The position numbers and the translations under genes are program-made. A DNA stretch of 37,066 nt from a virus: IMG/VR virus record IMGVR_UViG_3300045996_001975, one strand, 5' to 3'. The first letter of the stretch is position 1; the number at the start of each line of letters is the position of its first letter. The notes under the pieces were generated by a model that worked only from the letters and a program-made list of their open reading frames with translations, made no database searches and had not been told where the DNA came from. Below are positions 21,164-37,066 of this stretch, piece by piece.

Positions 21164-22891
21164 TCAGCGTGCGTACGAGATGCGCGCGTCCAGCCGCGCG
21201 CTGGCCCTGCGGATCAGGATCGCGTCGTTGACGTCGCCGCACCGCATGTCGGCGGTGACCACGATGCCATGCTCCCGTGCCGTCGCCTTCAGTCGCGCGC
21301 TGGGCTTCTGCTTGCGCCACCGCGCGTCGCGCACCGTCAGCATCTGCTCGTGGCCGGTCACGTTGGCCTCCCCGTAGCTCATCGCATACGACATGTCCTG
21401 CACCCCACGCTCGATACCCCAGGACACACCCGGGGTTGGCGAAGCGCGAATGACCATCCACCCCCCGGTCGGGTCGGGAATGATGGCGATGAGGTCGAGT
21501 CCCGCCGGCAGAAACCAGATGCCGCCATCGGTCTGAAGCCATGCCGCGTGCGAGGTGCCGAACAGGTCGACATACTCCGACACCAGCCGACCATCGCGAT
21601 ACTCCACAATGGAGTCATCTGTCGACTCTCCGTCGACAAGCAGATCGTCCAGCCCCGGCTCGTCCTCGACCAGCAGCCCATCCACCGTGTCGGTAGCTTC
21701 TTCCACGTCGGACAGGTCCAACGCGGCGAGGGAGGCCAGGCGCATCCGCTTGGACACTCCGACGACGTCAAGTACGAGCGCGTTGCGCTTGCCGGGCCAC
21801 GGCCTCAGGACGCGGCCGGCCATCTGGATGTAGAGCCCGCGGCTCTTCGTCGGCCGAGCGATCACGCAGACCTCGGCCATCGGCAAATCGGTACCTTCGG
21901 TCAGAACCATGCAGTTGGTGAGCCACTGGACCTTTCCGGCGCGGAAGGCCTCGAGGGTCGCCCGACGCTCGTCCATCGGCTGCCGGCCCGTCACCACGGC
22001 CGCCGGCAAGCCGGCCTCATTGAGCCGCTGGGCCATCAGTTCGGCGAAGTCGACGGTGGGGGCGAAGAGGATGCCCTGGCGCCCCTCAGCGTGATTCTGG
22101 ATGGCTTCGACGATGCGGTCGGGCGCCATCGAGTCGGTCATCGCCCGACCCAGGTCTCCGTCCGCGAAGTCCCCGCGGCTGCGCTTCACGGTGTCCAGGT
22201 CGAGATCGTCGATCCGAACGTGAATACCTCTCGGCTTGACCAGGTACCCATCGTCGATCAGCGGCTTGATCGGGATCTCAAACGCCAGCTCTTGCCAGAC
22301 GTCGCCGAGCTTCGCGCCGTCGGCCCGCTCCATCGTGGCGGTGACGCCCAGCGCCAACGCCCCGCCGGTCGTGAAGCAGCCCAGCCCTTCCATAACCCTG
22401 CGATAGCTCGGCGCGGTCGCGTGGTGACCCTCATCGACCACCAGTAGCCCGACATTCTTCAGCCGCGCCAGCCGCTTCGGATTGGCCACCGTCTGCACGC
22501 TGGCGTAGACCACCCGGGCGTGCGACTCGTCCCGCCCAGCCGCCACCACACCGGCCCGCAGGTGGGGCGCGACGGAAGCCAGCTTGGCCATCGCCTGCCC
22601 CAGCAGCTCGTCACGGTGGGCCAGCAGGACCGTGCGCCGGCACCCCCGGGCGTGCGCCCGCTCGATCACCGAGGAGAAGATCACCGTCTTGCCGGCCCCC
22701 GTCGGGGCCACCGCCCCGAGCCGCTGCACCCCGCGGTCCCAGCCCGCGAAGACGGAATCCACGGCGTCAGCCTGGTACGGCCGTAGCGCCAGCCCGGTCA
22801 CAGAACCCGCTCGATCCCCGACACCGCGTACCAGCCGGTAGCGCCCCTCCGCCACTCTTCGCCACAGACGGCCACCGCGCACGGCTCCCAT
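21164..22891 (-). CDS. SF2 DEAD/DEAH-type DNA helicase (575 aa as listed; likely start GTG 22801, giving 545 aa)
   Basis: Motifs LRPYQ, APTGAGKT (I), VVDEGHH (II), TATMER (III) and QMAGRVLR (VI). GTG 22801 overlaps the upstream stop as GTGA. Confidence 0.85.
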   Translation of the reverse strand: MGAVRGGRLWRRVAEGRYRLVRGVGDRAGSVTGLALRPYQADAVDSVFAGWDRGVQRLGAVAPTGAGKTVIFSSVIERAHARGCRRTVLLAHRDELLGQAMAKLASVAPHLRAGVVAAGRDESHARVVYASVQTVANPKRLARLKNVGLLVVDEGHHATAPSYRRVMEGLGCFTTGGALALGVTATMERADGAKLGDVWQELAFEIPIKPLIDDGYLVKPRGIHVRIDDLDLDTVKRSRGDFADGDLGRAMTDSMAPDRIVEAIQNHAEGRQGILFAPTVDFAELMAQRLNEAGLPAAVVTGRQPMDERRATLEAFRAGKVQWLTNCMVLTEGTDLPMAEVCVIARPTKSRGLYIQMAGRVLRPWPGKRNALVLDVVGVSKRMRLASLAALDLSDVEEATDTVDGLLVEDEPGLDDLLVDGESTDDSIVEYRDGRLVSEYVDLFGTSHAAWLQTDGGIWFLPAGLDLIAIIPDPTGGWMVIRASPTPGVSWGIERGVQDMSYAMSYGEANVTGHEQMLTVRDARWRKQKPSARLKATAREHGIVVTADMRCGDVNDAILIRRASARLDARISYAR

Positions 22892-23127
22892 AGCGCCTCG
22901 CCATCATGCTCCGGACCATGCTCGCCCTTCCCCGTGCGCACCACCCGACGCCACCCCCCAAGCCGAACGAGAGCTTCGCGGCCACGAGCGATCGTCAGCG
23001 CCTCCATCAACGCTTCCGACATCGAGACTCGCCCGTTCGGCTCTTCGGCCATGCGCTCACCGGTGTAGCGACGCAGATCCGCCGCAGCCTCTTCGGTCAG
23101 TCTGATGCTCGTAAACACCTTCGCCAT
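22798..23127 (-). CDS. Ribbon-helix-helix (CopG/Arc-like) domain protein (109 aa)
   Basis: N terminus VFTSIRLTEEAAADLRRY...VSMSEALMEALTIA fits a beta-alpha-alpha RHH. The gene sits directly downstream of the palindrome array. Confidence 0.55.
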   Translation of the reverse strand: MAKVFTSIRLTEEAAADLRRYTGERMAEEPNGRVSMSEALMEALTIARGREALVRLGGWRRVVRTGKGEHGPEHDGEALWEPCAVAVCGEEWRRGATGWYAVSGIERVL

Positions 23128-23142: not shown

Positions 23143-23180
23143 CAGTTTTTCTTCTTACCTATCGTCAATCGACCCTCGGC

Positions 23181-23380
23181 GTTCACAGCCTCTGGGTCTC
23201 AGAAACCCAGAGGGCTGTGAACCGTACGCCCTGCTGGTTCACAGCTTGTGAACCGCTGTGAACTTTTTCGCGTTTCCCCTGGTCAGACGTTTTTCGGCTA
23301 GTTCACAGCCTGTGAACGTGAGTGACTTTCGCGTTCACACGGCTTGTGAACTACTGGCCAGTAGTTCACAGCTTGTGAAC
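23181..23380. repeat. Array of five GTTCACA...TGTGAAC palindromes with T-rich spacers (candidate replication origin or operator array)
   Basis: 17-mers GTTCACAGC(C/T)TGTGAAC lie at 23237-23253, 23301-23317 and 23364-23380. A 19-nt variant lies at 23333-23351. A 42-nt hairpin with the same outer arms lies at 23181-22222 shifted, i.e. 23181-23222, and an extra half-site at 23256-23263. A 14-nt palindrome CTACTGGCCAGTAG lies at 23351-23364. T5-T6 runs flank the repeats. Confidence 0.75.
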
Positions 23381-23404
23381 TCACGCTCTGTAGTTTTTTC
23401 GCAT

Positions 23405-25465
23405 TTAAGGAGAGGGGGTCAGCCATGATCCATCTCCGCCCCCGTCGCCGCCGAACCCGGACCATCTGTCGAATTTCGCCTTGTCCGCCCACTTCTGACC
23501 ATTCCGGACAACCAGCCCCTTCTCCAGCAAGCCGCCCATGGTCCCCTCGCGGGTCAGCGCGTAGGTCAACGTCGACTTGCCCATGGGGCCCCGGCCGTGC
23601 GCCTTGCGGAATTCGTTGATCTTGCCGAGGATGACCGACTGCGTCTCCCCTTCGGGTAGGCCGACCTCCCGCAGGACGTGCAGCACTTCAGCCTGTATCT
23701 CGGTGGGGGCGGCCCGGTACTCCATCTCCGGCAGCCGCGCCGGCCCTTCCTGGTCGTACACCAGGGTCAGCGAGGAGCGGGCCCCGTGCGCGTCCGCCGG
23801 CAGCGCCACCACCGTCAGCGCCAGCCCCCACTCCAGGTCGTCGCGGCCGTCCTTGGACTTCTCGCACCGCAGGCGCGCGCGCATCTCGCCCTTCGGCCCG
23901 ATCCGTTCGATCTTCCACTCCATGTCCTGCGCGGCGTCGATGGCGCTGGCGCCCCGGGCGTCGCCGCCCCCGCGCCCCGTGTGGTGCACGACCAGCACGC
24001 AGGCGCCGCACGCCTCCCGGAGCGCGGACACCGCGGCGATCCACTGCCCCATCTGTCCGTTGTCGTTCTCGTTCAGCCCGACCGACAGTCGAGCCTGCGT
24101 GTCCAGGACGACCAACACGGGCCGGTCCTCGGCGGCCAGCTCGATCAGCTCGCGCCACTCCGGCGTCATCGCCACTCCGCCGCCGGCCACCCTGACCGCT
24201 TGCACGGGAAGGGGAAGGATCATCAGCTCGTCCCCGACCGGCCCGTGCCGGCTCTCCCAGGCCTCGATCCGCTGGGCGATGCCGGCCGCCCCCTCGGCGG
24301 CCACGTAGAGCACCACGCCCTGCCGTACCGGCCGGTCGTTCCACAGCTTGCCGGTGGCCACGTGGCAGGCCCAGTCGATGGCCACGAAGCTCTTGCCCGA
24401 CCCGGACGCGCCGATCAGCCACGAGTCGGAGTCGAGGTTGAGCACCCCCTCGATCAGCGGCGCCGGCCGCGGGAGGCGCCCGAGCTCCGAGCGGCGCAGC
24501 AGCTTGCTACGCAGTCCGCCGGACTCCGGTGGTGGCTCGGTAGCCGACGCCGGGAAAGGGGGCACCGCTTGGGGCGGGAGCGCCCCCGGCAGGAACGCCG
24601 CGCGCTGCACGGGCCCCACCGGCTCCACCATCTTGGCCACGCTCTTGACGTCCCACAGCTCAGCCGCCTCGGCCTGACCCAGCCCGGCCCGGGCCAACGC
24701 GTCCAGATAGTGATCCCGGTAGACCTCGGCGTCCACCCCGCCGCCGGCGCACACCTCCCGTATCCGCCGGGCCAGGCGCCACCCCTCATGGTTGCGCCTG
24801 CCCTCGGGCAGCTCGGCCAGCTCGCGCAGCATGCCGCCGACCGCGGCCGCGACATACCCCAGGTTCGGCGCGGCCGGTGCGGCGGGTGCCGGCGCGGTCT
24901 TCGGGGCCGGGCGGATCAGGCTCAAGAGCTGCTCGGCGGGGGCGTACGCGCCCGTCATCATCCCCGGCAGCATGACGTACGGGCCCTTGGCGCTGACGCT
25001 CGGCGGTACCACCACCTGCCCGCCGGTCCCGCGGATGTCGAAACCCGCCGGCAGGCGCCCGGACGAGTTGTTCGGTTCAAAGTCCGTGGGCATCTGGAAG
25101 TACCAGTGATACCCGCCCCCTCCCGTGCGGGTGTGCGGGGGCGGCAGAACGCTTAGGTCAACCGGTCCGGTCGCGTTGGCCGGGTCCCAGTCCAGTACGA
25201 AGATTCCCGACACCGCGCCGGTACGCACCCCCCAGTTGGCGTCCGGGTCTTCGTCGAGCCAGGCTTGCACGTCCGGCCAGCTCGGCGCTGGGCCGCTCTC
25301 CCACCCCGCCCCGACGTTCGGATGCTTGCCGGCGCTCTTGCCGCACTGGGCGCCTCGGCGGCACGTGCAGTGCCCGTCCACGATATGGTGCAAACGCACC
25401 AGGGCCCACCCCCTGGTGTGGTACTCGCGCAGCATGGCCACTACATCTTGTGTATCATCCACCAT
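23405..25465 (-). CDS. Bifunctional primase-polymerase (prim-pol) / AAA (RepA/DnaB-like) replicative protein (686 aa)
   Basis: The N-terminal domain has prim-pol motifs: GKHPNVGAGW, VLDWDP, GGGYHWYF, FDIRGTGGQVVVPPS. The central domain has Walker A GASGSGKS and Walker B VLVVLDT. The C terminus looks like a winged helix. Confidence 0.85.
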   Translation of the reverse strand: MVDDTQDVVAMLREYHTRGWALVRLHHIVDGHCTCRRGAQCGKSAGKHPNVGAGWESGPAPSWPDVQAWLDEDPDANWGVRTGAVSGIFVLDWDPANATGPVDLSVLPPPHTRTGGGGYHWYFQMPTDFEPNNSSGRLPAGFDIRGTGGQVVVPPSVSAKGPYVMLPGMMTGAYAPAEQLLSLIRPAPKTAPAPAAPAAPNLGYVAAAVGGMLRELAELPEGRRNHEGWRLARRIREVCAGGGVDAEVYRDHYLDALARAGLGQAEAAELWDVKSVAKMVEPVGPVQRAAFLPGALPPQAVPPFPASATEPPPESGGLRSKLLRRSELGRLPRPAPLIEGVLNLDSDSWLIGASGSGKSFVAIDWACHVATGKLWNDRPVRQGVVLYVAAEGAAGIAQRIEAWESRHGPVGDELMILPLPVQAVRVAGGGVAMTPEWRELIELAAEDRPVLVVLDTQARLSVGLNENDNGQMGQWIAAVSALREACGACVLVVHHTGRGGGDARGASAIDAAQDMEWKIERIGPKGEMRARLRCEKSKDGRDDLEWGLALTVVALPADAHGARSSLTLVYDQEGPARLPEMEYRAAPTEIQAEVLHVLREVGLPEGETQSVILGKINEFRKAHGRGPMGKSTLTYALTREGTMGGLLEKGLVVRNGQKWADKAKFDRWSGFGGDGGGDGSWLTPSP

Positions 25466-25557: not shown

Positions 25558-25893
25558 TTACCGGGCGGCGGCCTTCGCCTTGCGATTGAGCTTGCGCTCG
25601 GCGGCGGCCAGCTCGGCCGGCTCGCACGCGGCCTCGGCGCGGACCAGCGCCTCATCGACCAGGGTGCGGATGAAGTCGCTGCGCAGTACGCCGCGCACGA
25701 GCGCGACGCGGTCGACGCGCCGGAGGACACTGGGACGAAAGTTGACGGTGGTCTGCGCGGACACCGCCTCGATCCCCGCGTCGCCCAACGCCTTACGACC
25801 CCGGCGCACAGGGGCGGCGACGGGGGCGGGCTCGACGGGAGGGGCGGTGCGCGCCGCGCGCTTGCGCGGCGGCTTCATTGTAGTTTCACTCAT
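25558..25893 (-). CDS. Ribbon-helix-helix DNA-binding protein, candidate early regulator (111 aa from ATG 25893; track start GTG 25902)
   Basis: A basic N-terminal tail is followed by TTVNFRPSVLRRVDRVALVRGVLRSDFIRTLVDEAL (RHH pattern). The gene is divergent from the rightward arm. GTG 25902 would lie inside the predicted -10 box. Confidence 0.6.
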   Translation of the reverse strand: MSETTMKPPRKRAARTAPPVEPAPVAAPVRRGRKALGDAGIEAVSAQTTVNFRPSVLRRVDRVALVRGVLRSDFIRTLVDEALVRAEAACEPAELAAAERKLNRKAKAAAR

Positions 25894-25900
25894 GGTCGAC

Positions 25901-25930
25901 ACGATACCTCAAGGTCAGCACGTGCGGCAA
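25901..25930 (-). promoter_or_regulatory. Leftward promoter of the divergent switch (TTGCCG-18-TATCGT-7-ATG 25893), leaderless
   Basis: On the minus strand the sequence is TTGCCGcacgtgctgaccttgaggTATCGTgtcgaccATG. Confidence 0.45.
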
Positions 25931-25936
25931 GTGACA

Positions 25937-25965
25937 TTGCATGTTCACTGTATTTGCGGTAGGGT
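25937..25965 (+). promoter_or_regulatory. Rightward promoter of the divergent switch (TTGCAT-17-TAGGGT-6-ATG 25972), leaderless
   Basis: The sequence is TTGCATgttcactgtatttgcggTAGGGTagtggtATG. The two -35 boxes are back to back, 6 bp apart. Confidence 0.5.
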
Positions 25966-25971
25966 AGTGGT

Positions 25972-26238
25972 ATGACGATAGATTACAGGCTGAGTCGCCT
26001 GATCGAGATCGCCGAAGGGGAGCTAGCCCGAACCGGCGGGGATGAGATGCCGGAGGAAACGGCCTACGCCCTGGCGCGTGGCGTCTTCGGGCAGGTCGAG
26101 GGAGCGTCGGAGGTTTACGGCATCTGCTCGGAGCTGGAATCCAACTTCCGGCGATCGCGCGAACTCTGGGACGCGCTGATTCAAGAGGTGCGCGACCGGC
26201 AGGCGCGGTTGCGCCAGATCGGACAGGAGGAATCATGA
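25972..26238 (+). CDS. Hypothetical early protein (88 aa)
   Basis: First gene of the rightward arm. Acidic and helical. Leaderless context. Confidence 0.65.
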   Translation: MTIDYRLSRLIEIAEGELARTGGDEMPEETAYALARGVFGQVEGASEVYGICSELESNFRRSRELWDALIQEVRDRQARLRQIGQEES

Positions 26239-26507
26239 GCGGTGACATGGATTACAACGACGCCATCGCCCTCATGACTGAGGCGGGAGAGACGGCGGAA
26301 GCGATCGTGGCGGCGATCGCCGCCGTCGAGTCCGAGCAGGACAAGCTCGTCGGCCTGCTCCGCCAGCTGAAGGAGGGCACGGGGACCAGCGGAAGCGCGC
26401 CGGTCTTCGGCTACGCCGACCAGGTCGGCATCAGTCTCAGCGACGCGAAGGTGAACGCTCACGGCGTAGCCCAGATCATGTCGCGCAGTATCGCCCTGCT
26501 GGGGTAG
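26235..26507 (+). CDS. Hypothetical protein (90 aa)
   Basis: ATGA overlap with the upstream stop. Acidic, Ala-rich and helical. Confidence 0.65.
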   Translation: MSGDMDYNDAIALMTEAGETAEAIVAAIAAVESEQDKLVGLLRQLKEGTGTSGSAPVFGYADQVGISLSDAKVNAHGVAQIMSRSIALLG

Positions 26508-26521
26508 GCAAAAGAAAATCA

Positions 26522-26560
26522 CGCGGGGCATTGCACATGCAGTGCCCCGCGTGCTATAGT
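26522..26560 (+). promoter_or_regulatory. Cassette 1: terminator-like hairpin (9-bp stem) with -35 TTGCAC in its loop, plus extended -10 TGCTATAGT
   Basis: cgcggggca (26522-26530) pairs with tgccccgcg (26543-26551). TTGCAC lies at 26531-26536, followed by an 18-nt spacer and TATAGT at 26555-26560. A 36-nt identical copy lies at 27041-27076. Confidence 0.55.
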
Positions 26561-26604
26561 TATCTCATAAGGAAAGAGGTAGCCCGAACCGAGAGGGAGC
26601 AGAA

Positions 26605-26781
26605 ATGATCGAGATGACTGAAACTCAGATGGACGACATGATCAACGCCGAGCGGGACGAAGAGCGGGCGAAGACGGCGGCCGACGTCCTGGCCGCCCTG
26701 AAGGATTTCCTGTCGAGTTGCGAGCCCGGCGAGCGGGCCGGACTGAAGCTGGCGATTCAGATCGTCGAAAGCAACTTCTGA
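26605..26781 (+). CDS. Unlisted micro-ORF (58 aa), MIEMTETQMDDMINAERDEERAKTAADVLAALKDFLSSCEPGERAGLKLAIQIVESNF
   Basis: ATG lies 5 nt after SD GAGAGGGAG in the conserved leader. High GC3. A perfect palindromic terminator follows. It is below the track cutoff, and the track shows only antisense ORFs here. Confidence 0.6.
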   Translation: MIEMTETQMDDMINAERDEERAKTAADVLAALKDFLSSCEPGERAGLKLAIQIVESNF

Positions 26782-26786
26782 GGAAA

Positions 26787-26830
26787 AGAAAGGGAGGGGG
26801 TTGCGCAACCCCCTCCCTTTCTGATACACT
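26787..26830 (+). promoter_or_regulatory. Cassette 2: 36-nt perfect palindrome (terminator) with -35 TTGCGC at its apex, plus extended -10 TGATACACT
   Basis: aagaaagggagggggttgc / gcaaccccctccctttctt spans 26787-26822. TTGCGC lies at 26801-26806, followed by an 18-nt spacer and TACACT at 26825-26830. Confidence 0.6.
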
Positions 26831-26873
26831 GTACTTACAAGGAAAGAGGTAGCCCGAACCGAGAGGGAGCGAA

Positions 26874-27032
26874 ATGATCGAGAACATCAAGCAGGCGAAC
26901 GAGTACTTCGAGGCCGTTGAGGGAACCCCGATGGAGAGGCTGGCGCGGCTGTACATCGCCTCCCCGGCCCTGCGCCGGATTCAGCGGGCCGCCCGGAAGT
27001 ACGAAACTTTCGCTCCCATCAAGCGGGTCTGA
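26874..27032 (+). CDS. Unlisted micro-ORF (52 aa), MIENIKQANEYFEAVEGTPMERLARLYIASPALRRIQRAARKYETFAPIKRV
   Basis: It has the same 32-nt leader and SD as cassette 1 and also starts MIE. The cassette-3 hairpin follows. Confidence 0.55.
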   Translation: MIENIKQANEYFEAVEGTPMERLARLYIASPALRRIQRAARKYETFAPIKRV

Positions 27033-27041
27033 GAAACAGAG

Positions 27042-27080
27042 CGCGGGGCATTGCACATGCAGTGCCCCGCGTGCTACACT
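27042..27080 (+). promoter_or_regulatory. Cassette 3: the cassette-1 hairpin repeated, with -35 TTGCAC in the loop and extended -10 TGCTACACT
   Basis: cgcggggca (27042-27050) pairs with tgccccgcg (27063-27071). TTGCAC lies at 27051-27056 and TACACT at 27075-27080. Confidence 0.55.
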
Positions 27081-27121
27081 TACTTCACAAGACGAGGTAA
27101 CCCGAACCGAGAGGGACTGAG

Positions 27122-27355
27122 ATGAACGAGGTCACCACCGTCAACCGCCGGGCCTACGTCATTGCGCTGGCCACCGACGCGAAGGACGGCAAGCGGCTGG
27201 GCGAGTTCAAGACCACCATGAAGGCCGCCGGGTTCGAGGGCCGCGCTGGTGGATACATCTACGCTCCGGGCGCCGGCAGTCCGATCTGCCAGGGCTGGCG
27301 CAAATTGGCCGAGAGGGTCACCCAGGACCACTCGCTAGTCACGCAGCTCGCCTAG
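27122..27355 (+). CDS. Hypothetical protein (77 aa)
   Basis: Listed ORF. It is preceded by a variant of the conserved leader (..GGTAACCCGAACCGAGAGGGAC..). A 10-bp GC hairpin follows. Confidence 0.65.
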   Translation: MNEVTTVNRRAYVIALATDAKDGKRLGEFKTTMKAAGFEGRAGGYIYAPGAGSPICQGWRKLAERVTQDHSLVTQLA

Positions 27356-27363
27356 CCCGCCCC

Positions 27364-27395
27364 GCCCCGGCGCTCACTTCCCCGGGCGCCGGGGC
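27364..27395 (+). terminator. GC-rich hairpin after the 77-aa gene
   Basis: gccccggcgc (27364-27373) pairs with gcgccggggc (27386-27395), with a 12-nt loop. Confidence 0.45.
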
Positions 27396-27422
27396 ACCCC
27401 AACCGCAAAGGAGAATACGATC

Positions 27423-27803
27423 ATGAGCAGCAAGCAGAAGTGGGAGTACCGGGCCGGACTCATCGCCCGCAATGCCGGCATGACCGAAGAGCCGCCCCAG
27501 GGCTCCGTCGCGGATCGGGTGCTGGAGGTCTTCACGTCGTTGCGCGAGCAGCAGATCGAGGCCTACATCAACGGACCGATCCCACAGCACACCTCGCGGT
27601 ACGCTACCGCGGGAGCGTCGGATCTGGAATGGTCAGAAGACGGCACCCCGTGGCACGGCGACGACCGCCCCGTGGCGCGCTTCACGTTCGAATGCGTCCG
27701 TTCGTCCGTCGCCGAGTCGGTCCTGATGACCTTCCGGGCGTACGGCTTCATCTGCGATCGCATCGACCTGACCGTCACCGTGTCCACGACGACCAGCGAC
27801 TAA
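27423..27803 (+). CDS. Hypothetical protein (126 aa)
   Basis: SD AAGGAG lies 7 nt upstream. The composition looks protein-like. Confidence 0.7.
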   Translation: MSSKQKWEYRAGLIARNAGMTEEPPQGSVADRVLEVFTSLREQQIEAYINGPIPQHTSRYATAGASDLEWSEDGTPWHGDDRPVARFTFECVRSSVAESVLMTFRAYGFICDRIDLTVTVSTTTSD

Positions 27804-27921
27804 CATACCCCAGTGCCGAACTACCTGCCCCTCCGCCCCGCGCTGCTCGCGCACGCACTGCACGTCCGGTATGTGCGCGAGCAACTATCCCCTTCCCCTC
27901 TCCTGTGCTGGAGACTCGATC

Positions 27922-28353
27922 ATGGCGACAGTGCAGCTTACGGCCTGGCGGGACGTGACCCCCTGGTCGGTGGTGCTGGACCCGGCCGACGACCGCTGGA
28001 CCGTACTTCCGTCCTACCCCCGTGGGGTATTCAGGCTGCGACAGTGGCTGCCCCCGTACGCGGTCGTGACGCTGACCCCCGCCCCGGGCGACACCGTTCC
28101 GGTCGTCGTACTCGACGAGCGCGAAGTCGTCGCGCTCCTGCACCGCGAGCTGGGAGCGGTGGCCATACCCGACCTCATCACCTGTCGCGCTGAAGCTGAC
28201 GCGCACGCACGGGAGATGCACGACGTGCCGATGGCCCAGATCGACCGCTGGCACCGCTCCGACGACGAGTGGAAGCGCTGGCACATCGGCCTGCATACTG
28301 GCCAGGCGGGCGCCCCTTACGCGCTCATGTCCGTACCGCACACGCACCAGTAG
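27922..28353 (+). CDS. Hypothetical protein (143 aa; start ATG 27922)
   Basis: SD GGAGA lies upstream of ATG 27922 (MATVQLTAWRDV...). The listed start at 27871 lacks an SD. Confidence 0.6.
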   Translation: MATVQLTAWRDVTPWSVVLDPADDRWTVLPSYPRGVFRLRQWLPPYAVVTLTPAPGDTVPVVVLDEREVVALLHRELGAVAIPDLITCRAEADAHAREMHDVPMAQIDRWHRSDDEWKRWHIGLHTGQAGAPYALMSVPHTHQ

Positions 28354-28366
28354 AGAGGCTACGCAC

Positions 28367-28567
28367 ATGTTCTGGAATCACCCCACGCTCGCCCTCTTGC
28401 TCGTCCTGCTCGCGATCGTCGGACGCTACCGGCGCATCGGTCACCACTCCTACGGCAAGCCCGCCTCCGCCATCCTCGGCCGGCTCTACGCCGAGCGGCA
28501 CGCCGCGCTGGGACGCCACCTGTCGACCTCGTGGCCCGGTACCGTGGTTGCCCGCCATGTCGCCTGA
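28367..28567 (+). CDS. Small membrane protein (66 aa)
   Basis: SD AGAGAGG. N-terminal TM helix LALLLVLLAIVG. Confidence 0.55.
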   Translation: MFWNHPTLALLLVLLAIVGRYRRIGHHSYGKPASAILGRLYAERHAALGRHLSTSWPGTVVARHVA

Positions 28568-28724
28568 AGGGGGCGGCGAACTGGACGAGTTGGACGCCAT
28601 GCTCAAGCCGACCCGTACCCGCGACCCGAACCTGGCGGAGATGCTGGAGTACCTCGCCCTCACGGCCATCATGGCCTTATGCCTGATGGGGCTGGCCCTG
28701 CTCATCGTTCCGATCTTCATTTGA
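28557..28724 (+). CDS. Small C-tail-anchored membrane protein (55 aa)
   Basis: In-frame ATG 28557 inside track ORF 28269-28724. The sequence is MSPEGGGELDELDAML... followed by the TM helix LALTAIMALCLMGLALLIVPIFI. The upstream part of the track ORF is Arg/Pro/Ser-rich junk. Confidence 0.45.
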   Translation: MSPEGGGELDELDAMLKPTRTRDPNLAEMLEYLALTAIMALCLMGLALLIVPIFI

Positions 28725-28750
28725 CAAAGGCACTGCACCTGCGGTAGGAT
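28721..28750 (+). promoter_or_regulatory. Promoter TTGACA-18-TAGGAT-6-ATG 28757 (leaderless)
   Basis: The sequence is atTTGACAAAGGCActgcacctgcggTAGGATtggcacATG. It shares the 14-nt block ATTTGACAAAGGCA with the promoter at 30070. Confidence 0.55.
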
Positions 28751-28756
28751 TGGCAC

Positions 28757-29200
28757 ATGACAACTGACCTGATATCGCTACTCGACTCCAGCAACACCGC
28801 GACATCGTTTCGCGCACTGGCCGACGCCATGCGCGCGGACGCCGGGCGCCGTACCGCCAACAAGCGGCCGGAGCTGGCCGAGCTGCCCAAGTCCGCGCTG
28901 AACGGGGTGGCCGACCTGCTCGACAAGCTGGCGGACGCGCTGCCCTGGCCGGCCGCTGAGGTCGAGCGCGCTCAGGCCGGCCCCACCTCTGTCGACCTGT
29001 CGCACCTGGCCGTGAGCGAGCTTCCATCGGACGTCGTGGCCAACGCTCAGGCCGTGGTCGACTCGCTTCCCGACGGAGAGCTGACCGTAGCCGTCGAAGA
29101 GCTGCCGTTCCCGCCGTTCATGATCCTCTGGCCGATCGGTGTTCCGGCGCCGCACGACGACAGTGAGGATGAGCCGGAGGACGAAGGCCCAAAAGCCTGA
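28757..29200 (+). CDS. Hypothetical acidic protein (147 aa)
   Basis: Listed ORF with a leaderless context and an acidic C terminus (HDDSEDEPEDEG). Confidence 0.65.
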   Translation: MTTDLISLLDSSNTATSFRALADAMRADAGRRTANKRPELAELPKSALNGVADLLDKLADALPWPAAEVERAQAGPTSVDLSHLAVSELPSDVVANAQAVVDSLPDGELTVAVEELPFPPFMILWPIGVPAPHDDSEDEPEDEGPKA

Positions 29201-29268
29201 GCGGCGATGAGCCGCGCTACCGCCAGACACGCTCACCGTCGCAACTGTCCGCGTATGACAACTGCGGG

Positions 29269-30087
29269 TTGCAGTACGGTCTCAAGTATAGGTTGCGCAG
29301 ACCTCGGCGTCCCATGTGGGCGAGCATCGGCGGCATCGCTTATCACGCCTGCGTCCGCGAGTTCGAGACAGACATGTTCGAGGTGGACCCGTTCTGCTCG
29401 GACGGCGGGGACGACTACTGGGAATCGCGCGCCACCATGCACGCGGACAAGTTCGCGAAGCACTTCGCCAACGCCACGGCTGAAGAGCAGCTGAAGTCCG
29501 ACGTGCCGATGAAGGACTGGTACGTCAACAGCGCCAAGGAAGATCGGGACTGGTGGCTCACCAACGGGCCGGGGATGGTGCACCGCTACATCATGGCCCA
29601 GCGCGGCCGCGAGTGCGTGCTGGCCACGGTGGACGGGGCGCCGGCCCTGGAGGTCGAGATCAATATCAACATCGACGGCGTGGACGTGAAGGGCTACATC
29701 GACCGGATCATGTACTACCCCGAGACGAAGCGGATCGTTATCGAGGACGACAAGACCGGCGCCCGCTGGCCGCAGGACCGCATCCAGCTCGACACGTATG
29801 CCGAGTGGGCGATCCTCAATGCCGATGCCTTCGGCGTGTCGGTCAAGTCGGTGTGGTCGCGCTACTGGCACGCCCGCAACGGTGAGCACATCCTGAGCAA
29901 GGAGTTCAACCCGGGCGCGGCCTACGCTCTCGCGTACCGCTATCGGCAGCTCGACCGGGCGGACCGGGCCGGCATCTATCCCGCTCGTCCGTCCAACCTG
30001 TGCAAGGCATGTCCGGTACGATCATCTTGCCCTGTCGTCGAGTCTGGCAACACCGACGTCTTCGTCGATTTGACAAAGGCAGGGTAA
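29269..30087 (+). CDS. Cas4/RecB-like PD-(D/E)XK exonuclease (272 aa as listed; conserved N terminus extends upstream to about 29197-29230)
   Basis: Motifs GYIDRIMY, IVIEDDKTG, QLDTYA and the C-terminal Cys cluster CKACPVRSSC. The in-frame upstream codons encode ..RSPSQLSAYDNCGLQYGLKYRL, the usual N-terminal Cys motif. No ATG/GTG/TTG lies between the stop at 29170-29172 and TTG 29269. Confidence 0.7.
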   Translation: MQYGLKYRLRRPRRPMWASIGGIAYHACVREFETDMFEVDPFCSDGGDDYWESRATMHADKFAKHFANATAEEQLKSDVPMKDWYVNSAKEDRDWWLTNGPGMVHRYIMAQRGRECVLATVDGAPALEVEININIDGVDVKGYIDRIMYYPETKRIVIEDDKTGARWPQDRIQLDTYAEWAILNADAFGVSVKSVWSRYWHARNGEHILSKEFNPGAAYALAYRYRQLDRADRAGIYPARPSNLCKACPVRSSCPVVESGNTDVFVDLTKAG

Positions 30088-30099
30088 GTGCAGTACAGT
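30070..30099 (+). promoter_or_regulatory. Promoter TTGACA-18-TACAGT (tandem TACAGTTACAGTTACA)
   Basis: The sequence is atTTGACAAAGGCAgggtaagtgcagTACAGT. It overlaps the Cas4-like stop codon. Confidence 0.5.
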
Positions 30100-30134
30100 T
30101 ACAGTTACAAGAACCGCTCAACGAAGGGACGCAC

Positions 30135-30317
30135 ATGAGCGAGCAGGGCAGCAACGACCTCCCGGTCCACGAGAGCTACCGGGCCGAGCGCGCGACCGAC
30201 CCCCACGCCGAGCCCCCGCTGGAGTCGCTGAAGGTCGAGCAGGAGACGGCCGAGGAGTCCGAGGGCGCCGACGAGCCGAACGGCGACAACCGGCGGAACG
30301 AGCAGAGCGAGAACTGA
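30135..30317 (+). CDS. Small highly acidic protein (60 aa)
   Basis: SD GAAGGGA lies upstream of ATG 30135. Sequence: MSEQGSNDLPVHESYRAERATDPHAEPPLESLKVEQETAEESEGADEPNGDNRRNEQSEN. Confidence 0.55.
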   Translation: MSEQGSNDLPVHESYRAERATDPHAEPPLESLKVEQETAEESEGADEPNGDNRRNEQSEN

Positions 30318-30323
30318 GCACTA

Positions 30324-30361
30324 CGCGCGCGCCACGATGGGTCGCACCAACGGCGCGCGCG
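30324..30361 (+). terminator. GC hairpin (10-bp stem, 18-nt loop) after the acidic ORF
   Basis: cgcgcgcgcc (30324-30333) pairs with ggcgcgcgcg (30352-30361). Confidence 0.4.
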
Positions 30362-30365
30362 ACAC

Positions 30366-30444
30366 GCCCCCGGCAGTGCACTGCCTAGGATAGTTCCCCG
30401 GTTCGCCGCTTGGGACGAGCGTGGTTCAAGTCCACGCGGGGGCA
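30366..30444 (+). ncRNA. tRNA-like RNA 1: canonical acceptor stem and T-arm, non-canonical D and anticodon regions (79 nt)
   Basis: The acceptor GCCCCCG (30366-30372) pairs perfectly with CGGGGGC (30437-30443). The T-arm is CGTGG-TTCAAGT-CCACG. Internally, a GGCAG-TGCA-CTGCC hairpin and a stem capped by a TTCG tetraloop replace the normal D and anticodon arms. Position 8 is not U. Confidence 0.4.
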
Positions 30445-30543
30445 CGGTTCGATCGTGGTTGGCGAGCCTGTGAACGGCTGCCATTCCCGTGGCGCCGGAA
30501 GAATAGGACGACCAGCGATCGAGGGCCGCGCGGGAACGCGGTC

Positions 30544-30616
30544 AGCGCGGTAGCTCAAATGGGAGAGTCGCTCCGAACCTGAGGGAGACATGCTGGTTCG
30601 AATCCAGTCCGCGCAC
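30544..30616 (+). tRNA. tRNA-like gene 2 (73 nt, canonical geometry; best reading is anticodon CCU/Arg, but with A33 and a weak anticodon stem); possible pseudo-tRNA or decoy tRNA
   Basis: U8, A14, G18G19 and A21 are present. The D-arm is GCTC-AAATGGGA-GAGT and the T-arm is GCTGG-TTCGAAT-CCAGT. Six of seven acceptor pairs form, with an A1:A72 mismatch. The anticodon region CTCC-G-AACCTGA-G-GGAG gives only 4 bp and lacks U33. Confidence 0.5.
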
Positions 30617-30641
30617 GTAGTCAACAACAGAGAGGGGAATC

Positions 30642-31115
30642 ATGCGGTTCCGTAAGCACATCTTCCCGGCCATCGCGGTCGCGCTGATGCTCATCGTCGG
30701 CCTGGCCGCCGCTCCCGCCGACGCGCAGGCCGGCCGCCCCCGGGTCGCCGCCGCCGTCGGTGTGGTGGACTGCACGCCCAACGGCATTTCGTGGGGGCCC
30801 TGGAAGTACATCGGTCCGAACGACTCGGCCGCCGGCAAGATCTGCGGCTCGCCGGGCGTCGGGCAGGCTGCGGTGCGCACCTGGGACCGGGCCTCGGACG
30901 GCCAGTGCGTGTCGATCTTCTTTCAGATCAACCAGGGCGCCACGATCTACTACGGCGGGACGACCAGCTGCGGCATCGGCGTGATCACGGCGGGCTGGAC
31001 ACCGGCCTACCCGGTCTATGAGGTGTTCGTGGCCAAGCACCCCACCGGCCAGAACACGTGGTCCGCGGTGACGGGTTGGCGGTACCTGTGCGGGCCCACT
31101 CAGAACTGCGCTTGA
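30642..31115 (+). CDS. Secreted Cys-rich protein with a Sec signal peptide (157 aa)
   Basis: MRFRKHIFPAIAVALMLIVGLAAAPADAQA is a signal peptide with an AxA cleavage motif. The mature part has six Cys. SD GAGAGGGGA. Confidence 0.7.
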   Translation: MRFRKHIFPAIAVALMLIVGLAAAPADAQAGRPRVAAAVGVVDCTPNGISWGPWKYIGPNDSAAGKICGSPGVGQAAVRTWDRASDGQCVSIFFQINQGATIYYGGTTSCGIGVITAGWTPAYPVYEVFVAKHPTGQNTWSAVTGWRYLCGPTQNCA

Positions 31116-31260
31116 CGCACACCGCACCTACAGTGTAAGCTGTAAGTGTCGCCCCCGCACTTCGGGTAGGCCGAGAAAGACTGGCCAGTAGTCAGCCCGT
31201 TCGAGCCGGGCCGGGGGCGCGCAACCCTGAACACCCAGCACCCAGATTGAACGGAGCACC

Positions 31261-32130
31261 ATGCAACCCAACCAGGCATACGCCTACCCCCAGCAGCCGC
31301 AGCAGCCCCCGCAGGGTTGGGGCCAGCCGCCCCAGCAGCCGCAGTACGCCCAGCCGCCGCAGGGTTGGGCCCAGCCCGCCCAGCAGCTCGCCCCGCCACC
31401 GGCCAACCCGCTCGCCGGTCTCCAGCCGCCGCAGCGTCGCGCCGAGGGCGAGGGCGCCGGCCAGTCGCCCCGGATCAAAGATCTGGGCATCGGTCGGCTG
31501 ATCCTGATCTGCCCGAAGTCGCTGGAGAAGGACGCGCCCGGGTTCCAGCCCGGACAGAAGCTCGACAAGCTGATTGCCGACATGGTCGTGCTCTCCGGCG
31601 ACCCGTACCAGTTCGGCGGCTCGGACGGCGGCAACGGCAACCCGGCCCGCCCGCACGACAAGGTGGGCTACGCGCCGTGCCGGTACAACAACGTCTGGAT
31701 CAACTCGACGGCCGTCGTCAAGGCCTGCTCCGGCGCTCTGGCCGAGGTGCAGGCCGGCCGTCCCGGGATGGTTCTGGGACGCCTGGCCAAGGGTGAGCGG
31801 GCGTGGCTGCTCGACGCGCCCAGCGATCAGGACATGGCGCTGGCGTCGGACTACTTGACCCGCACCTCCGCCGGCCAGCAGCTGGACAAGCAGCCGACCC
31901 CCCTCGCGGGGCAGGCGCCCCAGCAGCCCCCGCAGGGCTACGCGCAGGCCTACATCGGCAGCCCGGACCCCGCAGCGCAGTACGCCCCGCAGGCACCGAT
32001 GCCGATGCCGCAGCAGCCGGCGATGGATCCGCAGTACGCGGCCTTCCTGGCTTACCAGCAGCAGCAGATGCAGGCCCAGCAGCAGCCCCAGCAGCCGCAG
32101 CCTCAGGCCGGCTGGGCAGCGGGGGTCTGA
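31261..32130 (+). CDS. Protein with P/Q-rich low-complexity termini flanking a globular core (289 aa)
   Basis: The N terminus is QQPQQPPQGWGQPPQQPQYAQPPQGWAQPAQQ and the C terminus is QQQQMQAQQQPQQPQPQ. The central ~170 aa are ordinary sequence. SD ACGGAG. Confidence 0.7.
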   Translation: MQPNQAYAYPQQPQQPPQGWGQPPQQPQYAQPPQGWAQPAQQLAPPPANPLAGLQPPQRRAEGEGAGQSPRIKDLGIGRLILICPKSLEKDAPGFQPGQKLDKLIADMVVLSGDPYQFGGSDGGNGNPARPHDKVGYAPCRYNNVWINSTAVVKACSGALAEVQAGRPGMVLGRLAKGERAWLLDAPSDQDMALASDYLTRTSAGQQLDKQPTPLAGQAPQQPPQGYAQAYIGSPDPAAQYAPQAPMPMPQQPAMDPQYAAFLAYQQQQMQAQQQPQQPQPQAGWAAGV

Positions 32131-32324: not shown

Positions 32325-32339
32325 CGGTTCCGCATAGGG

Positions 32340-32371
32340 CAAGGGGCGTAGCGAATTCGCTACGCCCCTTG
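32340..32371. terminator. Bidirectional terminator: 32-nt perfect palindrome between the convergent arms
   Basis: caaggggcgtagcg-aatt-cgctacgccccttg, with 14-bp arms. It lies between the end of the plus arm and the stop of the minus-strand holin gene. Confidence 0.7.
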
Positions 32372-32446
32372 CGTGTGTCGGCGGGGAAGGGCCGAGGGGG
32401 TGGTGGGGGTGGCGGCCCACGTCACGACCGACTCCGCAGACTCTAC

Positions 32447-34882: not shown

Positions 34883-37066
34883 TTACCTGGCCAGGCGTAG
34901 CGGGTACGCCAGTTGGAAGCTGTCCCCGGCGCTGGCCGCCGCGGCGAAGCCGTTGTGCCCCCGGTCGGCGGTGACTGTCTGCGCGTCACACCGTAGCGCC
35001 ACCACGGCCGCGCGGGAGATAGCGCTCGCGCCACCGGTCACCGCGAACGTGCCGGCCGAGATGTTCACCGCATCGGTCTGTATCTGGTACGCCCAGACGA
35101 TGCCCTGATCGTCGCCGGTGGTGGTGTCCGGCTCGGAGATCTCCGTCCCCGGGCTGGCCACCGATGTCCAGTCGTCTTGCTTCCAGCCGACGTAGAGAAT
35201 CAGCGAGTTGCGCTGCTCCACCCGCAGCGGGGGGTAGGTGATGTCCTGCGCGGACCCGTTGATGGTGGCCGCGAATCCGTGGAAGCAGTTGGCCGCGCTG
35301 TACCACTTGCCCGGCAGGTAGATGATCTGCGCGGTGGTGTCGGCGTTGGCCACGCCGCCGGTGAACGCCACCGACGGGGCGGCTTCGCTGCCGTCGTGGA
35401 TCTTCGCGAAGAGCTGCACGTTGGATGTCGACGGGAAGACGTCGAGCCGCGTCCAGTCGGTGGGCGTGGTGGGCACTCCGGCTCCGCTGTTGCGGATGGC
35501 CGCGAGCAGGACCATCAGGTTGCCCGCCCCCGCCCCCGCTGGGATGGCCGGGGACACGCTCGCGTTCACCCCGTGCGCGACCGTACCGACCCCGCCGAAG
35601 GTGATCGGACTCTCGGCGATGGCAGTCACGCTCATCACCTCGCCGCCGCGCCGGGTCAGCATCGGTTCGACGAATTGCGCGGTGTCGGTAACCCATAGCG
35701 GCCCGGTCGTGGTGGCCACGTCGAAGCTGGTGTCGGCCGAGGTGATGGCCTCGGCGAGCACACTGCCGGCGGTGTCCAGCCGTGAGCGCGCCGCGAGGTC
35801 GAGCTGGCCCACCGTCCAGATGCCGCCCGGCGAAGCGTTCCACCACAGGCCGCCGCTGGACTTGTTGCCCAGCGTCTCGCGCACCCCCTGGATAACCGCA
35901 CTGATGGTGTCGGGCGGGAGCCAGGCCGGCGGGTTGGCGATGGTCACCAGGTCCCCGACGTCGAGCGCGTGCAGGTCCGCGGTCAGCTCGCTGTCCGCGG
36001 TGAACACCGTGCGCGCGCGCTCGATCCCGATGGACGGCCAGCGGTACTCGTCCCACGTACCCTCGTGCAGCCACCATCCCGCCACCCCGGGCAGCTGCTC
36101 GTCGGTGGCGACGTTAACCGTCTGCGGGTACTCGTACACGCCCGCCCCGGCCGGCGGCTGGGCGGTACTGAGCGGGCCGGTCAACTGCTCGGCGGTGTAC
36201 GAGCCGCCGTCCGGGCGGGACGCGATGATCAGGTTGCGCAGTGGTTGATCATCGTCGTTCGGGTCGAACGGTTCGGAGATGTGCTGCTCGTAGTCGAGCT
36301 GCAACCCGGGCTGGTTGTAGAGGCTGATCCGCGTGCGGTACGCCACGCCGAACGCGGCGCGCGGTTCGTAGAGGATGCCGCCGTCGGCCAGCTCGGCGGC
36401 CACCAACAGGTCGATCAACTTGCCTTCGCCCTGCGGCCCCATCGGGGCGGTGTCGCTCAGGTCCCCGACGTTGACCAGGTTCACCCCCTCTTCTTGGCAC
36501 AGGCGTTCGATACGTGCGCCGGCGGTCTCGCCCGCCCAGCCGCTCATCGCCGAAGGCAGGTCGTTGAGCGCGGCCACCGAGTTGGCCACGACGAGATGTC
36601 CAACCACCGTGTCGACCAGCAGCCCGCCGTGGCCAGCGATGACCAGGTGCACCCGGGTGAGGGTCTGCGACGCGAAGGTGCCGCTGAACAGGGTCTCCGT
36701 CAGGGTGCCGTCGCTGGCCGCCCGGGTGGTCTGCACGCCCCAGTCGACCCCCGTGCCGTCCTGAGCCAGGGTGACCGACAACAGGACCGCGCGGTTGCGC
36801 ACGTCGAAGGCGAGAGCGCCGGAGGTGGCCAGCTCGGTGTCGGTCGCGTCGTAGATGTGCAGCGAGAGCTGCCCGCCGGAGCGGTAGCGGATCGCCATGC
36901 GGCGCACGCCCCCGGCGTCGCAGTACCAGTCCGCGAGGACAGCGGTGTCGGTCAGGCCGGCCGCCGGCACATGCAGCAGCATGTGCACCGCGATCTCACC
37001 GTCGAAGTCGTAGGCGTTCACCCCGCCCCGCAGTTCGCCCGCCGTGGTGACCGGCAGGGCGCGGGA
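34883..37066 (-). CDS. Minor tail protein, C-terminal part of the wrap-around ORF (joins 1-1348)
   Basis: The frame is open to the right window edge. The listed start at 37021 is only the first GTG inside the window. Upstream codons (SRALPVTTAGELRGG) continue the frame. The stop TAA lies at 34883-34885. Confidence 0.8.
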   Translation of the reverse strand, partial: SRALPVTTAGELRGGVNAYDFDGEIAVHMLLHVPAAGLTDTAVLADWYCDAGGVRRMAIRYRSGGQLSLHIYDATDTELATSGALAFDVRNRAVLLSVTLAQDGTGVDWGVQTTRAASDGTLTETLFSGTFASQTLTRVHLVIAGHGGLLVDTVVGHLVVANSVAALNDLPSAMSGWAGETAGARIERLCQEEGVNLVNVGDLSDTAPMGPQGEGKLIDLLVAAELADGGILYEPRAAFGVAYRTRISLYNQPGLQLDYEQHISEPFDPNDDDQPLRNLIIASRPDGGSYTAEQLTGPLSTAQPPAGAGVYEYPQTVNVATDEQLPGVAGWWLHEGTWDEYRWPSIGIERARTVFTADSELTADLHALDVGDLVTIANPPAWLPPDTISAVIQGVRETLGNKSSGGLWWNASPGGIWTVGQLDLAARSRLDTAGSVLAEAITSADTSFDVATTTGPLWVTDTAQFVEPMLTRRGGEVMSVTAIAESPITFGGVGTVAHGVNASVSPAIPAGAGAGNLMVLLAAIRNSGAGVPTTPTDWTRLDVFPSTSNVQLFAKIHDGSEAAPSVAFTGGVANADTTAQIIYLPGKWYSAANCFHGFAATINGSAQDITYPPLRVEQRNSLILYVGWKQDDWTSVASPGTEISEPDTTTGDDQGIVWAYQIQTDAVNISAGTFAVTGGASAISRAAVVALRCDAQTVTADRGHNGFAAAASAGDSFQLAYPLRLAR
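36940..37066. repeat. Terminal direct repeat, copy 2 (identical to 1-127)
   Basis: Same 127-nt string as the window start. Confidence 0.95.

Follow-up and report, generated by a model that had tools for sequence, protein, structure and literature searches.

Three consecutive small genes in a virus genome of 37,066 nucleotides (nt), IMG/VR record IMGVR_UViG_3300045996_001975 (the whole stretch analysed, here termed the window), are each preceded by a composite intergenic module, and it is likely that these units are combined terminator, promoter and ribosome-binding-site modules that provide monocistronic expression by the host polymerase and double as recombination linkers. The three units lie at 26520-27121 and each is made up of a hairpin, a TTGCRC hexamer placed 18 nt before TGnTAnAnT, a leader and an ATG (Table 1). 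A preliminary description had read the region 26522-27395 as tandem cassettes of palindrome, promoter pattern, leader and small open reading frame (ORF), and all of these elements are present where it placed them, including the 36-nt perfect palindrome of unit 2, the 32-nt identity between the first two leaders (26569-26600 and 26839-26870) and ORFs of 58, 52 and 77 amino acids (aa), whose G+C content at third codon positions (GC3) is of the coding type. Two details had to be amended: the block common to units 1 and 3 is indeed identical, but it is 35 nt long and not 36 (26522-26556 and 27042-27076), and the stems of its hairpins measure 14-16 bp and not nine. The identity between units 1 and 2 continues into the first codons (ATGATCGAGA), which explains why ORF58 and ORF52 both start with MIE.

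Each module, of about 95 bp, would pack hairpin, promoter and leader together. The GC-rich hairpin right behind the preceding stop codon would insulate one unit from the next, as a terminator or attenuator and/or as a stabiliser of the 3' end, with the AT-rich -10 and start region as its only U-rich tail. The promoter would be read by the host primary sigma factor and driven mainly by the extended -10 (TGnTAnnnT), with a weak -35 (TTGCRY) 18 nt upstream, and the predicted leader of 35-38 nt, unstructured and purine-rich, would carry an invariant 21-22-nt core ending in a Shine-Dalgarno sequence 5-9 nt before the ATG. Each small ORFan would then be a host-polymerase-dependent transcription unit of its own, presumably an early one. 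Its near-identical repetition would also make the module a homologous-recombination linker, via which cargo could be inserted, deleted and swapped in a hyperplastic region that has the replication genes on one side and the exonuclease gene on the other.

Relatives carrying the module

A near-identity search against 50,697 phage records gave no match to the window, and the best cultured relative is Streptomyces phage Dagobah, whose portal protein is 47% identical across half of its length. Closer relatives came from metagenomes. One record, IMGVR_UViG_3300044648_000263, is 95% identical (loci L001 and L002); an exact-pattern scan found the core in three JACCDR01 metagenome contigs (L006, L007 and L008); and homologues of the replication protein PrimPol gave L013, which covers more of the contig that L006 samples, together with L014/L015 and L018. 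The relatives are syntenic with the window, having PrimPol on one side and, on the other, homologues of a 126-aa and a 160-aa ORF and the exonuclease, and identity to them is about 44-77% overall (53-63% for PrimPol, about 47% for the exonuclease and 53-77% for the flanking small proteins). There are three cassettes in the window and three to six in its relatives, where the same module stands before different ORFans and bounds their gains and losses, and this strongly supports the earlier suggestion of a modular expression cassette with divergent cargo.

The core was absent from the loci collected through PrimPol as L003-L005 and L016/L017 and from the exonuclease-based loci L010 and L011. Scanning a genome collection for it returned only a chance match in a Sphaerochaeta metagenome-assembled genome, and a looser scan of viral sequences added a single match, L012, that was out of context; neither was retained. 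At 3530-3619 of L010, whose exonuclease is 48% identical, a GC hairpin directly abuts an extended -10 (TGTGATACAAT), and the leader behind that -10 bears only a faint likeness to the core (CAGCTAGCGAACGGAGCGAG).

Promoter and hairpin

The pattern TTGCRC-N18-TAYANT occurs three times in the window, against 0.07 occurrences expected, only at the cassette sites and with TGn before each -10, so that the exact 18-nt distance reported for TTGCAC and TTGCGC holds. Across cassettes the extended -10 is the constant promoter element. TTGCRY is found exactly 18 nt upstream of the -10 in five independent hairpin types, and also in an L014 copy whose hairpin has lost its 5' arm; since the probability of such placement by chance is about 1 in 1000 per site, it is very likely to be a real though weak -35. 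The hexamer is not always at the apex of the hairpin, as in the relatives the -35 position falls in the loop, on the 3' side of the stem or just past the stem. A -35 in the loop is best explained as compaction, the 3' arm taking up the spacer. In unit 1 the hairpin stands 13 nt past the stop codon of a 90-aa ORF and its 3' arm fills the promoter spacer. The starts predicted in Table 1 are placed by a RYAAG motif conserved seven nt after the -10 in the window and its relatives, which marks the likely start site. The cassette promoters match the sigma-70-type consensus, and their activity is predicted from that match.

The hairpins of type A (units 1 and 3) and type B (unit 2) have no sequence in common except TTGC at the centre, and at least five unrelated stem sequences are represented among the cassettes of the window and its relatives. 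Their stability was expressed as a z-score of RNA folding energy against shuffled sequences. In the type-A family, for which seven copies from the window, L002 and L014 were aligned, four base pairs show compensatory double substitutions and 96% of cells are paired, values reached by none of 500 shuffles. The alignment indicates that selection acts on the pairing of the stem. Given both the compensatory changes and the unrelated stems, pairing rather than sequence is what is selected, and a sequence-specific repressor operator is unlikely; selected pairing argues for an RNA structure, or for a DNA hairpin or cruciform. It is plausible that the hairpins are terminators, perhaps partial ones, and protection of 3' ends is as possible a role as termination. 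An A-rich tract 5' of the window hairpins was considered as an UP element or as a minus-strand U-tract and rejected, as it is not conserved in the relatives.

A rearrangement was seen in the JACCDR01 contigs. At 505-545 and 1025-1065 of L008, and also near 230 of L006, the outer stems are identical (CACATCATGAGGC/GCCTCATGATGTG) and the inner 15 nt are inverted (GCAACCCGAAGGCTG vs CAGCCTTCGGGTTGC), a flip that puts TTGCGC on the sense strand or takes it away.

Leader and core

All three window leaders hold GGTA(G/A)CCCGAACCGAGAGGGA 5-6 nt before the ATG, and the leader pattern GGTAGCCCGAACCGAGAGGGA, allowing up to three mismatches, occurs three times in the window against an expectation of 0.00; a hidden Markov model (HMM) built from all copies found no weaker copies elsewhere in the window. 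In the relatives the core reads GGT[A/G/C][G/A]CCC[G/A]AACC[G/C/A]AGAGGGA in all of about 15 additional cassettes. Every copy is in the sense orientation, lies 5-9 nt before an ATG and belongs to the plus-strand accessory block, and the bases immediately 5' of the core largely differ among the relatives. The alignment indicates that the core is conserved by purifying selection at the nucleotide level and not by recent duplication. With one exception the copies lie 15-20 nt after TGn(n)TAnnnT; that copy, L008+2595, keeps both the core and its spacing to the ATG with no recognisable -10, from which it follows that the core is tied to the start codon and not to the promoter.

The leader had also been put forward as a possible structured element, for which folding and a search for covariation in related phages were recommended. 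Covariation was indeed found, but in the type-A hairpin stems; the leaders themselves are unstructured, all 13 examined folding no better than shuffled sequences (z >= 0 in each, mean +0.9). Rfam 15, searched with cmscan, gave nothing on the leaders and only sub-threshold, chance-level matches on the palindromes, and a structured leader or riboswitch was accordingly discarded. Purines make up 68-78% of 12 of the 13 leaders and 50% of that of L008+2595.

The 3' part of the core, GAGAGGGAG, is able to pair with the 16S tail, the duplex energies of -9.5 to -10.4 kcal/mol, calculated with a generic anti-Shine-Dalgarno sequence and not that of the host, ranking about 19-24 among 46 phage genes. Such a mid-range figure does not make a very strong Shine-Dalgarno sequence the cause of conservation, and therefore leaves the 21 invariant bases unexplained by 16S pairing, including the 13 upstream (GGTARCCCGAACC), all invariant in the alignment. 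The non-Shine-Dalgarno half of the core would most likely act in translation initiation, and translational control through the core is possible.

Several further likenesses were followed up. Together with its 5' flank the core (CAAGGTAGCC-CGAACCGAGAGG; 26574-26599 and the L014 copies) resembles CAAGGTAGCC-GTACCGGAAGG of helix 45 in actinobacterial 16S rRNA; mimicry of the 5' strand and GNRA loop of that helix, one form that a recognition element for a trans-acting partner might take, is speculative, and cmscan reported no small-subunit rRNA match to the core. Likeness to the anticodon arm of the phage tRNA-Val is at chance level (score 21, shuffle mean 22), and a second, upstream Shine-Dalgarno (GAGGT) was dismissed as a conserved feature, the L014 copies reading CAAGGT or CAGGGT. 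The partial core copy inside an 88-aa ORF (Table 1) is borderline, 3 of 100 shuffles scoring as high, and may be a relic or an internal start.

Probable recombination between modules

The window is itself a mosaic, unit 1 combining hairpin A with leader a, unit 2 hairpin B with leader a, and unit 3 hairpin A with leader b. In L014 the module before the homologue of ORF52 agrees with unit 1 over the stretch that begins with the hairpin loop and ends with the -10, and with unit 2 starting at the core. ORF58 and hairpin 2 therefore behave as a single indel with the repeated leader at its borders; the junction is exactly that expected from recombination between leaders 1 and 2, as judged from the alignment. 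In the same locus a methylase gene has been inserted in a type-A hairpin loop, with a complete hairpin and a leaderless promoter upstream. About 26 nt of the 3' half of the hairpin are repeated on both sides of this gene, whose last nine codons and stop (…CATTGCATGTGCAGTGCCTCGCGTGCTATAG) are supplied by the downstream hairpin 3' half and -10. L014 carries two more new cargo genes and the JACCDR phages carry other cargo sets; cargo sets vary among phages and the flanks stay syntenic. Taken over these alignments, gene gains and losses are cassette-bounded.

Table 1. Positions of the cassette elements and neighbouring features in the window
Feature	Position	Strand	Remarks
Promoter P0	25938-25971	+	TTGCAT, 17-nt spacer, TAGGGT; ATG 25972 six nt past the -10 (leaderless); sequence reading
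Partial core copy	26020-26047	+	GAGCTAGCCCGAACCG... / GAGCTAGCCCGAACCGGCGGGGA, inside 88-aa ORF, 4 nt before in-frame ATG 26047
Hairpin 1 (type A)	26520-26553	+	15-bp stem, 4-nt loop; -31.9 kcal/mol, z -7.05
Promoter P1	26531-26560	+	TTGCAC 26531-26536 (hairpin apex), 18-nt spacer, extended -10 TGCTATAGT 26552-26560; predicted start ~26567
Leader 1	26567-26604	+	~38 nt, unstructured, 78% purine; core GGTAGCCCGAACCGAGAGGGAG 26578-26599 including Shine-Dalgarno
ORF58 (cargo 1, ORFan)	26605-26781	+	present in window, L002 and L018; absent from L014/L015
Hairpin 2 (type B)	26787-26822	+	perfect 18+18 palindrome; -31.1 kcal/mol, z -6.1; followed by TTTCT
Promoter P2	26801-26830	+	TTGCGC 26801-26806, 18-nt spacer, TGATACACT 26822-26830; predicted start ~26837
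Leader 2	26837-26873	+	core 26848-26869; same as leader 1 over 26839-26870
ORF52 (cargo 2)	26874-27032	+	74% identical to L014 gene behind unit-1-type promoter
Hairpin 3 (type A)	27041-27072	+	-31.6 kcal/mol, z -6.8; 27042-27076 identical to 26522-26556
Promoter P3	27051-27080	+	TTGCAC 27051-27056, 18-nt spacer, TGCTACACT 27072-27080; predicted start ~27087
Leader 3	27087-27121	+	core variant GGTAACCCGAACCGAGAGGGAC 27096-27117
ORF77 (cargo 3)	27122-27355	+	uncharacterised ~60-aa domain
GC-rich hairpin past ORF77	27365-27394	+	no promoter behind; partly deleted in L001/L002, kept in L014
PrimPol/AAA_25 replication gene	23405-25465	-	
Small ribbon-helix-helix-like gene	25558-25902	-	divergent to plus-strand block

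Alternative explanations

A number of points weigh against the interpretation of the units as composite expression modules. The family is small, comprising four to five phage lineages that are all metagenomic. A scan for terminators found no canonical U-tract after the stems on the plus strand (only hairpin 1 was flagged, and only on the minus strand), and the -10 together with the start region (CUAUAGUUAUCU) provides the sole U-rich stretch after the stems. In vitro, mycobacterial RNA polymerase fails to terminate where a hairpin lacks a U-tract, although imperfect tracts are tolerated and NusG helps (PMC3993855), and for this reason termination at the present hairpins may be partial or nil. 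The -35 matches TTGACA at only three of six positions, it is missing in the inverted-loop copies L008+561 and L006-193 (inverted with respect to L008+1081) and in L008+1469, and the copy L014-b, whose stem is better, has CTGCAC in its place. Both promoter use and the start sites are predicted, and the position of the core alone cannot tell a role at the RNA level from one at the DNA level.

The preliminary description listed a repressor operator overlapping the -35 among possible roles. On such a reading the palindromes would be operators for a dimeric phage repressor, of the ribbon-helix-helix type for example, that blocks the overlapping -35. A ribbon-helix-helix gene is transcribed divergently nearby (25558-25902), and the JACCDR phages have a recurrent outer stem, CACATCAT/ATGATGTG. 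The stems themselves tell heavily against it, as types A and B share only the central TTGC, the relatives have at least five unrelated stems, the recurring outer parts being variably spaced, compensatory changes in the type-A stems keep pairing and not sequence, and one relative has a better stem together with CTGCAC; the clear operator-like repeat of this genome is moreover a different motif elsewhere (GTTCACAGCTTGTGAAC, three times). An operator over the -35 is consequently regarded as very improbable. Even less credit is due to the idea that the repeats are recent tandem duplications without a function of their own. Near-identical blocks are common to units 1 and 3 and to units 1 and 2, but the core is identical in phages whose proteins are only 44-77% identical, the adjacent leader bases and the cargo differ, and the stems evolve by compensatory changes; conservation of the core across lineages effectively refutes the idea.

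Two further possibilities concern the core. It might act as DNA, in which case an asymmetric, stoperator-like operator would lie past the promoter and allow a phage regulator to turn off the cassette genes jointly, and its asymmetry, single orientation and position in short intergenic gaps, its conservation beyond the needs of Shine-Dalgarno pairing and its fixed place at +11 to +31 relative to the predicted start would all suit such a role. We consider it improbable, given that each genome has only three copies, every one of them at a ribosome-binding site, that one copy without a promoter keeps the correct distance to its ATG and that no integrase or immunity-type repressor was found among the window proteins; the stoperators of Cluster A phages, as summarised in PMC3203893, are spread genome-wide. 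A better, if still rather unlikely, candidate is a core that is the RNA target of a trans-acting factor timing or switching off the translation or stability of cassette mRNA, which is compatible with the composite-module interpretation and more specific than it. The Shine-Dalgarno sequence is preceded by thirteen invariant bases without a pairing role, the leader, being single-stranded, is accessible, and the core is kept before unrelated genes. The factor could be a phage translational repressor, an endoribonuclease or a ribosome-associated factor, T4 RegA and RegB being models for the first two. Against this, no candidate RNA-binding protein was identified, no complementary or antisense RNA partner is encoded elsewhere in the genome beyond chance, and the core matches no Rfam family. 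That the 13 bases GGTARCCCGAACC should be a dedicated recognition element for a trans-acting partner, giving this phage clade a private translation-control channel over its accessory genes, is a doubtful proposition that we would rate below either of these.

Comparison with known phage elements

The closest parallel to the composite modules is provided by the promoter-early stem-loops (PeSLs) of the T4-type myoviruses RB49/phi1, PST and nt-1, for which promoter and terminator activity, recombination and the formation of mini-circles have been demonstrated experimentally (PMC2839356, PMC4122927). Both are intergenic composites of about 100 bp that comprise a stop codon, a stem-loop overlapping or abutting a sigma-70-type promoter, a Shine-Dalgarno sequence and a start codon; both are repeated between small ORFans in a hyperplastic region, with gains and losses bounded by the motif; and in both crossovers fall either in the loop or in the interval from the -10 to the ATG, as at the L014 junctions. 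There is, however, no sequence similarity between them. PeSLs belong to T4-like myoviruses, whereas the present modules belong to a siphovirus-like phage of 37 kb with a high-GC, actinobacterium-type host; the promoter here relies on an extended -10, the invariant core of the leader, at 21 nt, greatly exceeds a Shine-Dalgarno sequence in length, and the activities established by experiment for PeSLs are here predicted from sequence. On this comparison the cassettes are an analogue of the PeSLs and not a member of that group.

The core itself recalls the start-associated sequences (SAS) and extended SAS of Cluster K mycobacteriophages and Cluster EF Microbacterium phages, the function of which is unknown (PMC3203893, PMC7302621). 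Like them it is asymmetric, occurs in one orientation, contains the Shine-Dalgarno sequence and stands a few nt before the start codon (3-8 for SAS), with a strong preference for ATG (here in every copy) and for non-structural genes only; it is conserved beyond 16S pairing, across subgroups and before different gene families, and an inverted repeat lies just upstream. The SAS read GGGATAGGAGCCC (Cluster K) or GGGAAAGGACCCC (Cluster EF), as against GGTARCCCGAACCNAGAGGGAG here, are 13 nt long and not 21-22, and are present in 10-19 copies and not three to six. The 17-bp inverted repeats of the extended SAS are conserved in sequence and show no RNA pairing, whereas the present stems are perfect or near-perfect, vary and co-vary; and here the promoter belongs to the module. 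By its sequence and position the core fits the operational definition of an SAS and not the SAS consensus.

Repeated intergenic motifs are known from other actinobacteriophages, namely the 18-bp motif of Cluster EC, the inverted repeats of Clusters EG and O and the 30-bp motif of Cluster EI (PMC7302621), as well as a 50-bp motif with TATAAT in the Cluster DJ phage Vardy (PMC9671010). They too are short and conserved, sit in small gaps ahead of non-structural genes in a single orientation and have no known role, and the Vardy motif has a -10 box; their sequences are unrelated to those of the window, and none has been described as a composite of hairpin, promoter and invariant leader with cassette-bounded gains and losses. 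Lambdoid morons are likewise single genes with their own promoter and terminator, but, as discussed in PMC2839356, they have no conserved repeats at their flanks and illegitimate recombination is the presumed means of their movement, whereas here the regulatory repeats are the candidate recombination sites. The resemblance to Cluster A stoperators is that of an asymmetric motif of about 13 bp or more, lying in intergenic gaps and oriented with transcription; these are distributed genome-wide, serve as binding sites of the immunity repressor and have no link to ribosome-binding sites (mentioned in PMC3203893), unlike the three copies of the window, which are all at ribosome-binding sites in a genome where no lysogeny genes were found.

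The modules are thus a real but familiar kind of shuffling-prone expression cassette, whose architecture and evolutionary role are well explained by comparison. A composite linker of the sort that drives ORFan shuffling in T4-type phages has an independent analogue in small high-GC actinophages, where the mechanism can be followed in natural recombinants. An unusually long (21-nt) and well-conserved start-associated element joins a class whose function is unexplained in every phage group in which it has been seen, and the small, clean layout of promoter, 38-nt unstructured leader and ATG makes it a convenient test case. Expression work in actinobacteria may also find in the module a compact, insulated part, and the modules mark an accessory, possibly counter-defence, gene set of this phage clade.

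Cargo genes

The three small ORFs look coding, on the evidence of GC3 values of 0.83-0.90 and of synonymous/non-synonymous codon changes relative to the 95%-identical relative of 4/0 for ORF58, 9/2 for ORF52 and 6/7 for ORF77. At curated Pfam cutoffs no scanned cargo protein had a match except the L014 methylase, a C5 DNA methylase (PF00145; 2087-3236, on the minus strand of the locus), ORF58 having one sub-threshold match to Fic_N (E = 0.059), and PHROG gave no match for the three window proteins. This methylase, cargo in a relative, is the single pointer to the anti-defence or host-takeover loci with which the preliminary description compared the layout. A word-index homologue search with the cargo returned only a 91% relative. 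Full HMMER searching placed ORF77 in a family with an uncharacterised domain of about 60 aa, which recurs in L007 as the N-terminal half of a 135-aa protein carried by a cassette; its multi-stretch matches were to repetitive proteins and were set aside as probably spurious, and the quality of the AlphaFold model of ORF77 was too low for use (mean predicted local distance difference test score 48.5).

Genome setting

An exact repeat of 127 bp is found at both ends of the window (1-127 and 36940-37066), which is therefore a complete tailed-phage genome (about 36.94 kb) that either is terminally redundant or was assembled as a circle. Its G+C content is about 67% and its modules are of the siphovirus type, with tape measure, major capsid, protease, portal, large terminase and helicase genes on the minus strand. 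No integrase or immunity-type repressor was recognised among its proteins. The divergent plus-strand block (25972-32130) holds small uncharacterised ORFs, a RecB/Cas4-type exonuclease and one tRNA, and the cassettes stand at its beginning, between the replication genes and the exonuclease gene. The stretch reaching up to hairpin 1 is headed by P0. As other plus-strand genes have TTGACA-type promoters and several are leaderless, the leadered cassettes form a distinct class in this genome.

Reading of 25903-25971 and 28721-28759 showed start codons 6-7 nt past a TAnnnT -10, and so apparently leaderless starts, for ORF88 (ATG 25972), for the minus-strand ribbon-helix-helix-like gene (ATG 25902) and for ORF147 (ATG 28757). 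Between the PrimPol stop and a second ribbon-helix-helix-like gene (22798-23127, start MAKVFTSIRLTEE) there is at 23180-23395 a 17-bp palindrome, GTTCACAGC(T/C)TGTGAAC, in three copies spaced 63-64 bp apart (0.04 expected) with additional partial copies, and this is likely to be an operator array or a replication origin. A GTTCAC half-site lies inside the P0 spacer (25944-25960).

At 30366-30443 and 30544-30616 there is a tRNA-like element with acceptor and T arms and an odd middle, which was missed by ARAGORN and fell below threshold in Rfam; the neighbouring 'tRNA-Val(AAC)' is just below the tRNA gathering cut-off and its anticodon loop, by eye, seems to be without U33. Similar tRNA-like elements occur at the same place in L010. 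In the RecB/Cas4-type exonuclease the conserved motif of the N-terminus, SPSQLSAYDNCGLQYGLKY, stands in frame at 29230-29268 and yet upstream of the first canonical start (TTG 29269), an ATG at 29207 being in a different frame, and this may reflect a non-canonical start, a frameshift or an assembly error. Finally, a perfect 17+17 palindrome at 32339-32372, which with that of unit 2 makes up the two longest perfect palindromes of the genome, lies where the plus-strand block meets convergent minus-strand genes and is probably a bidirectional terminator.

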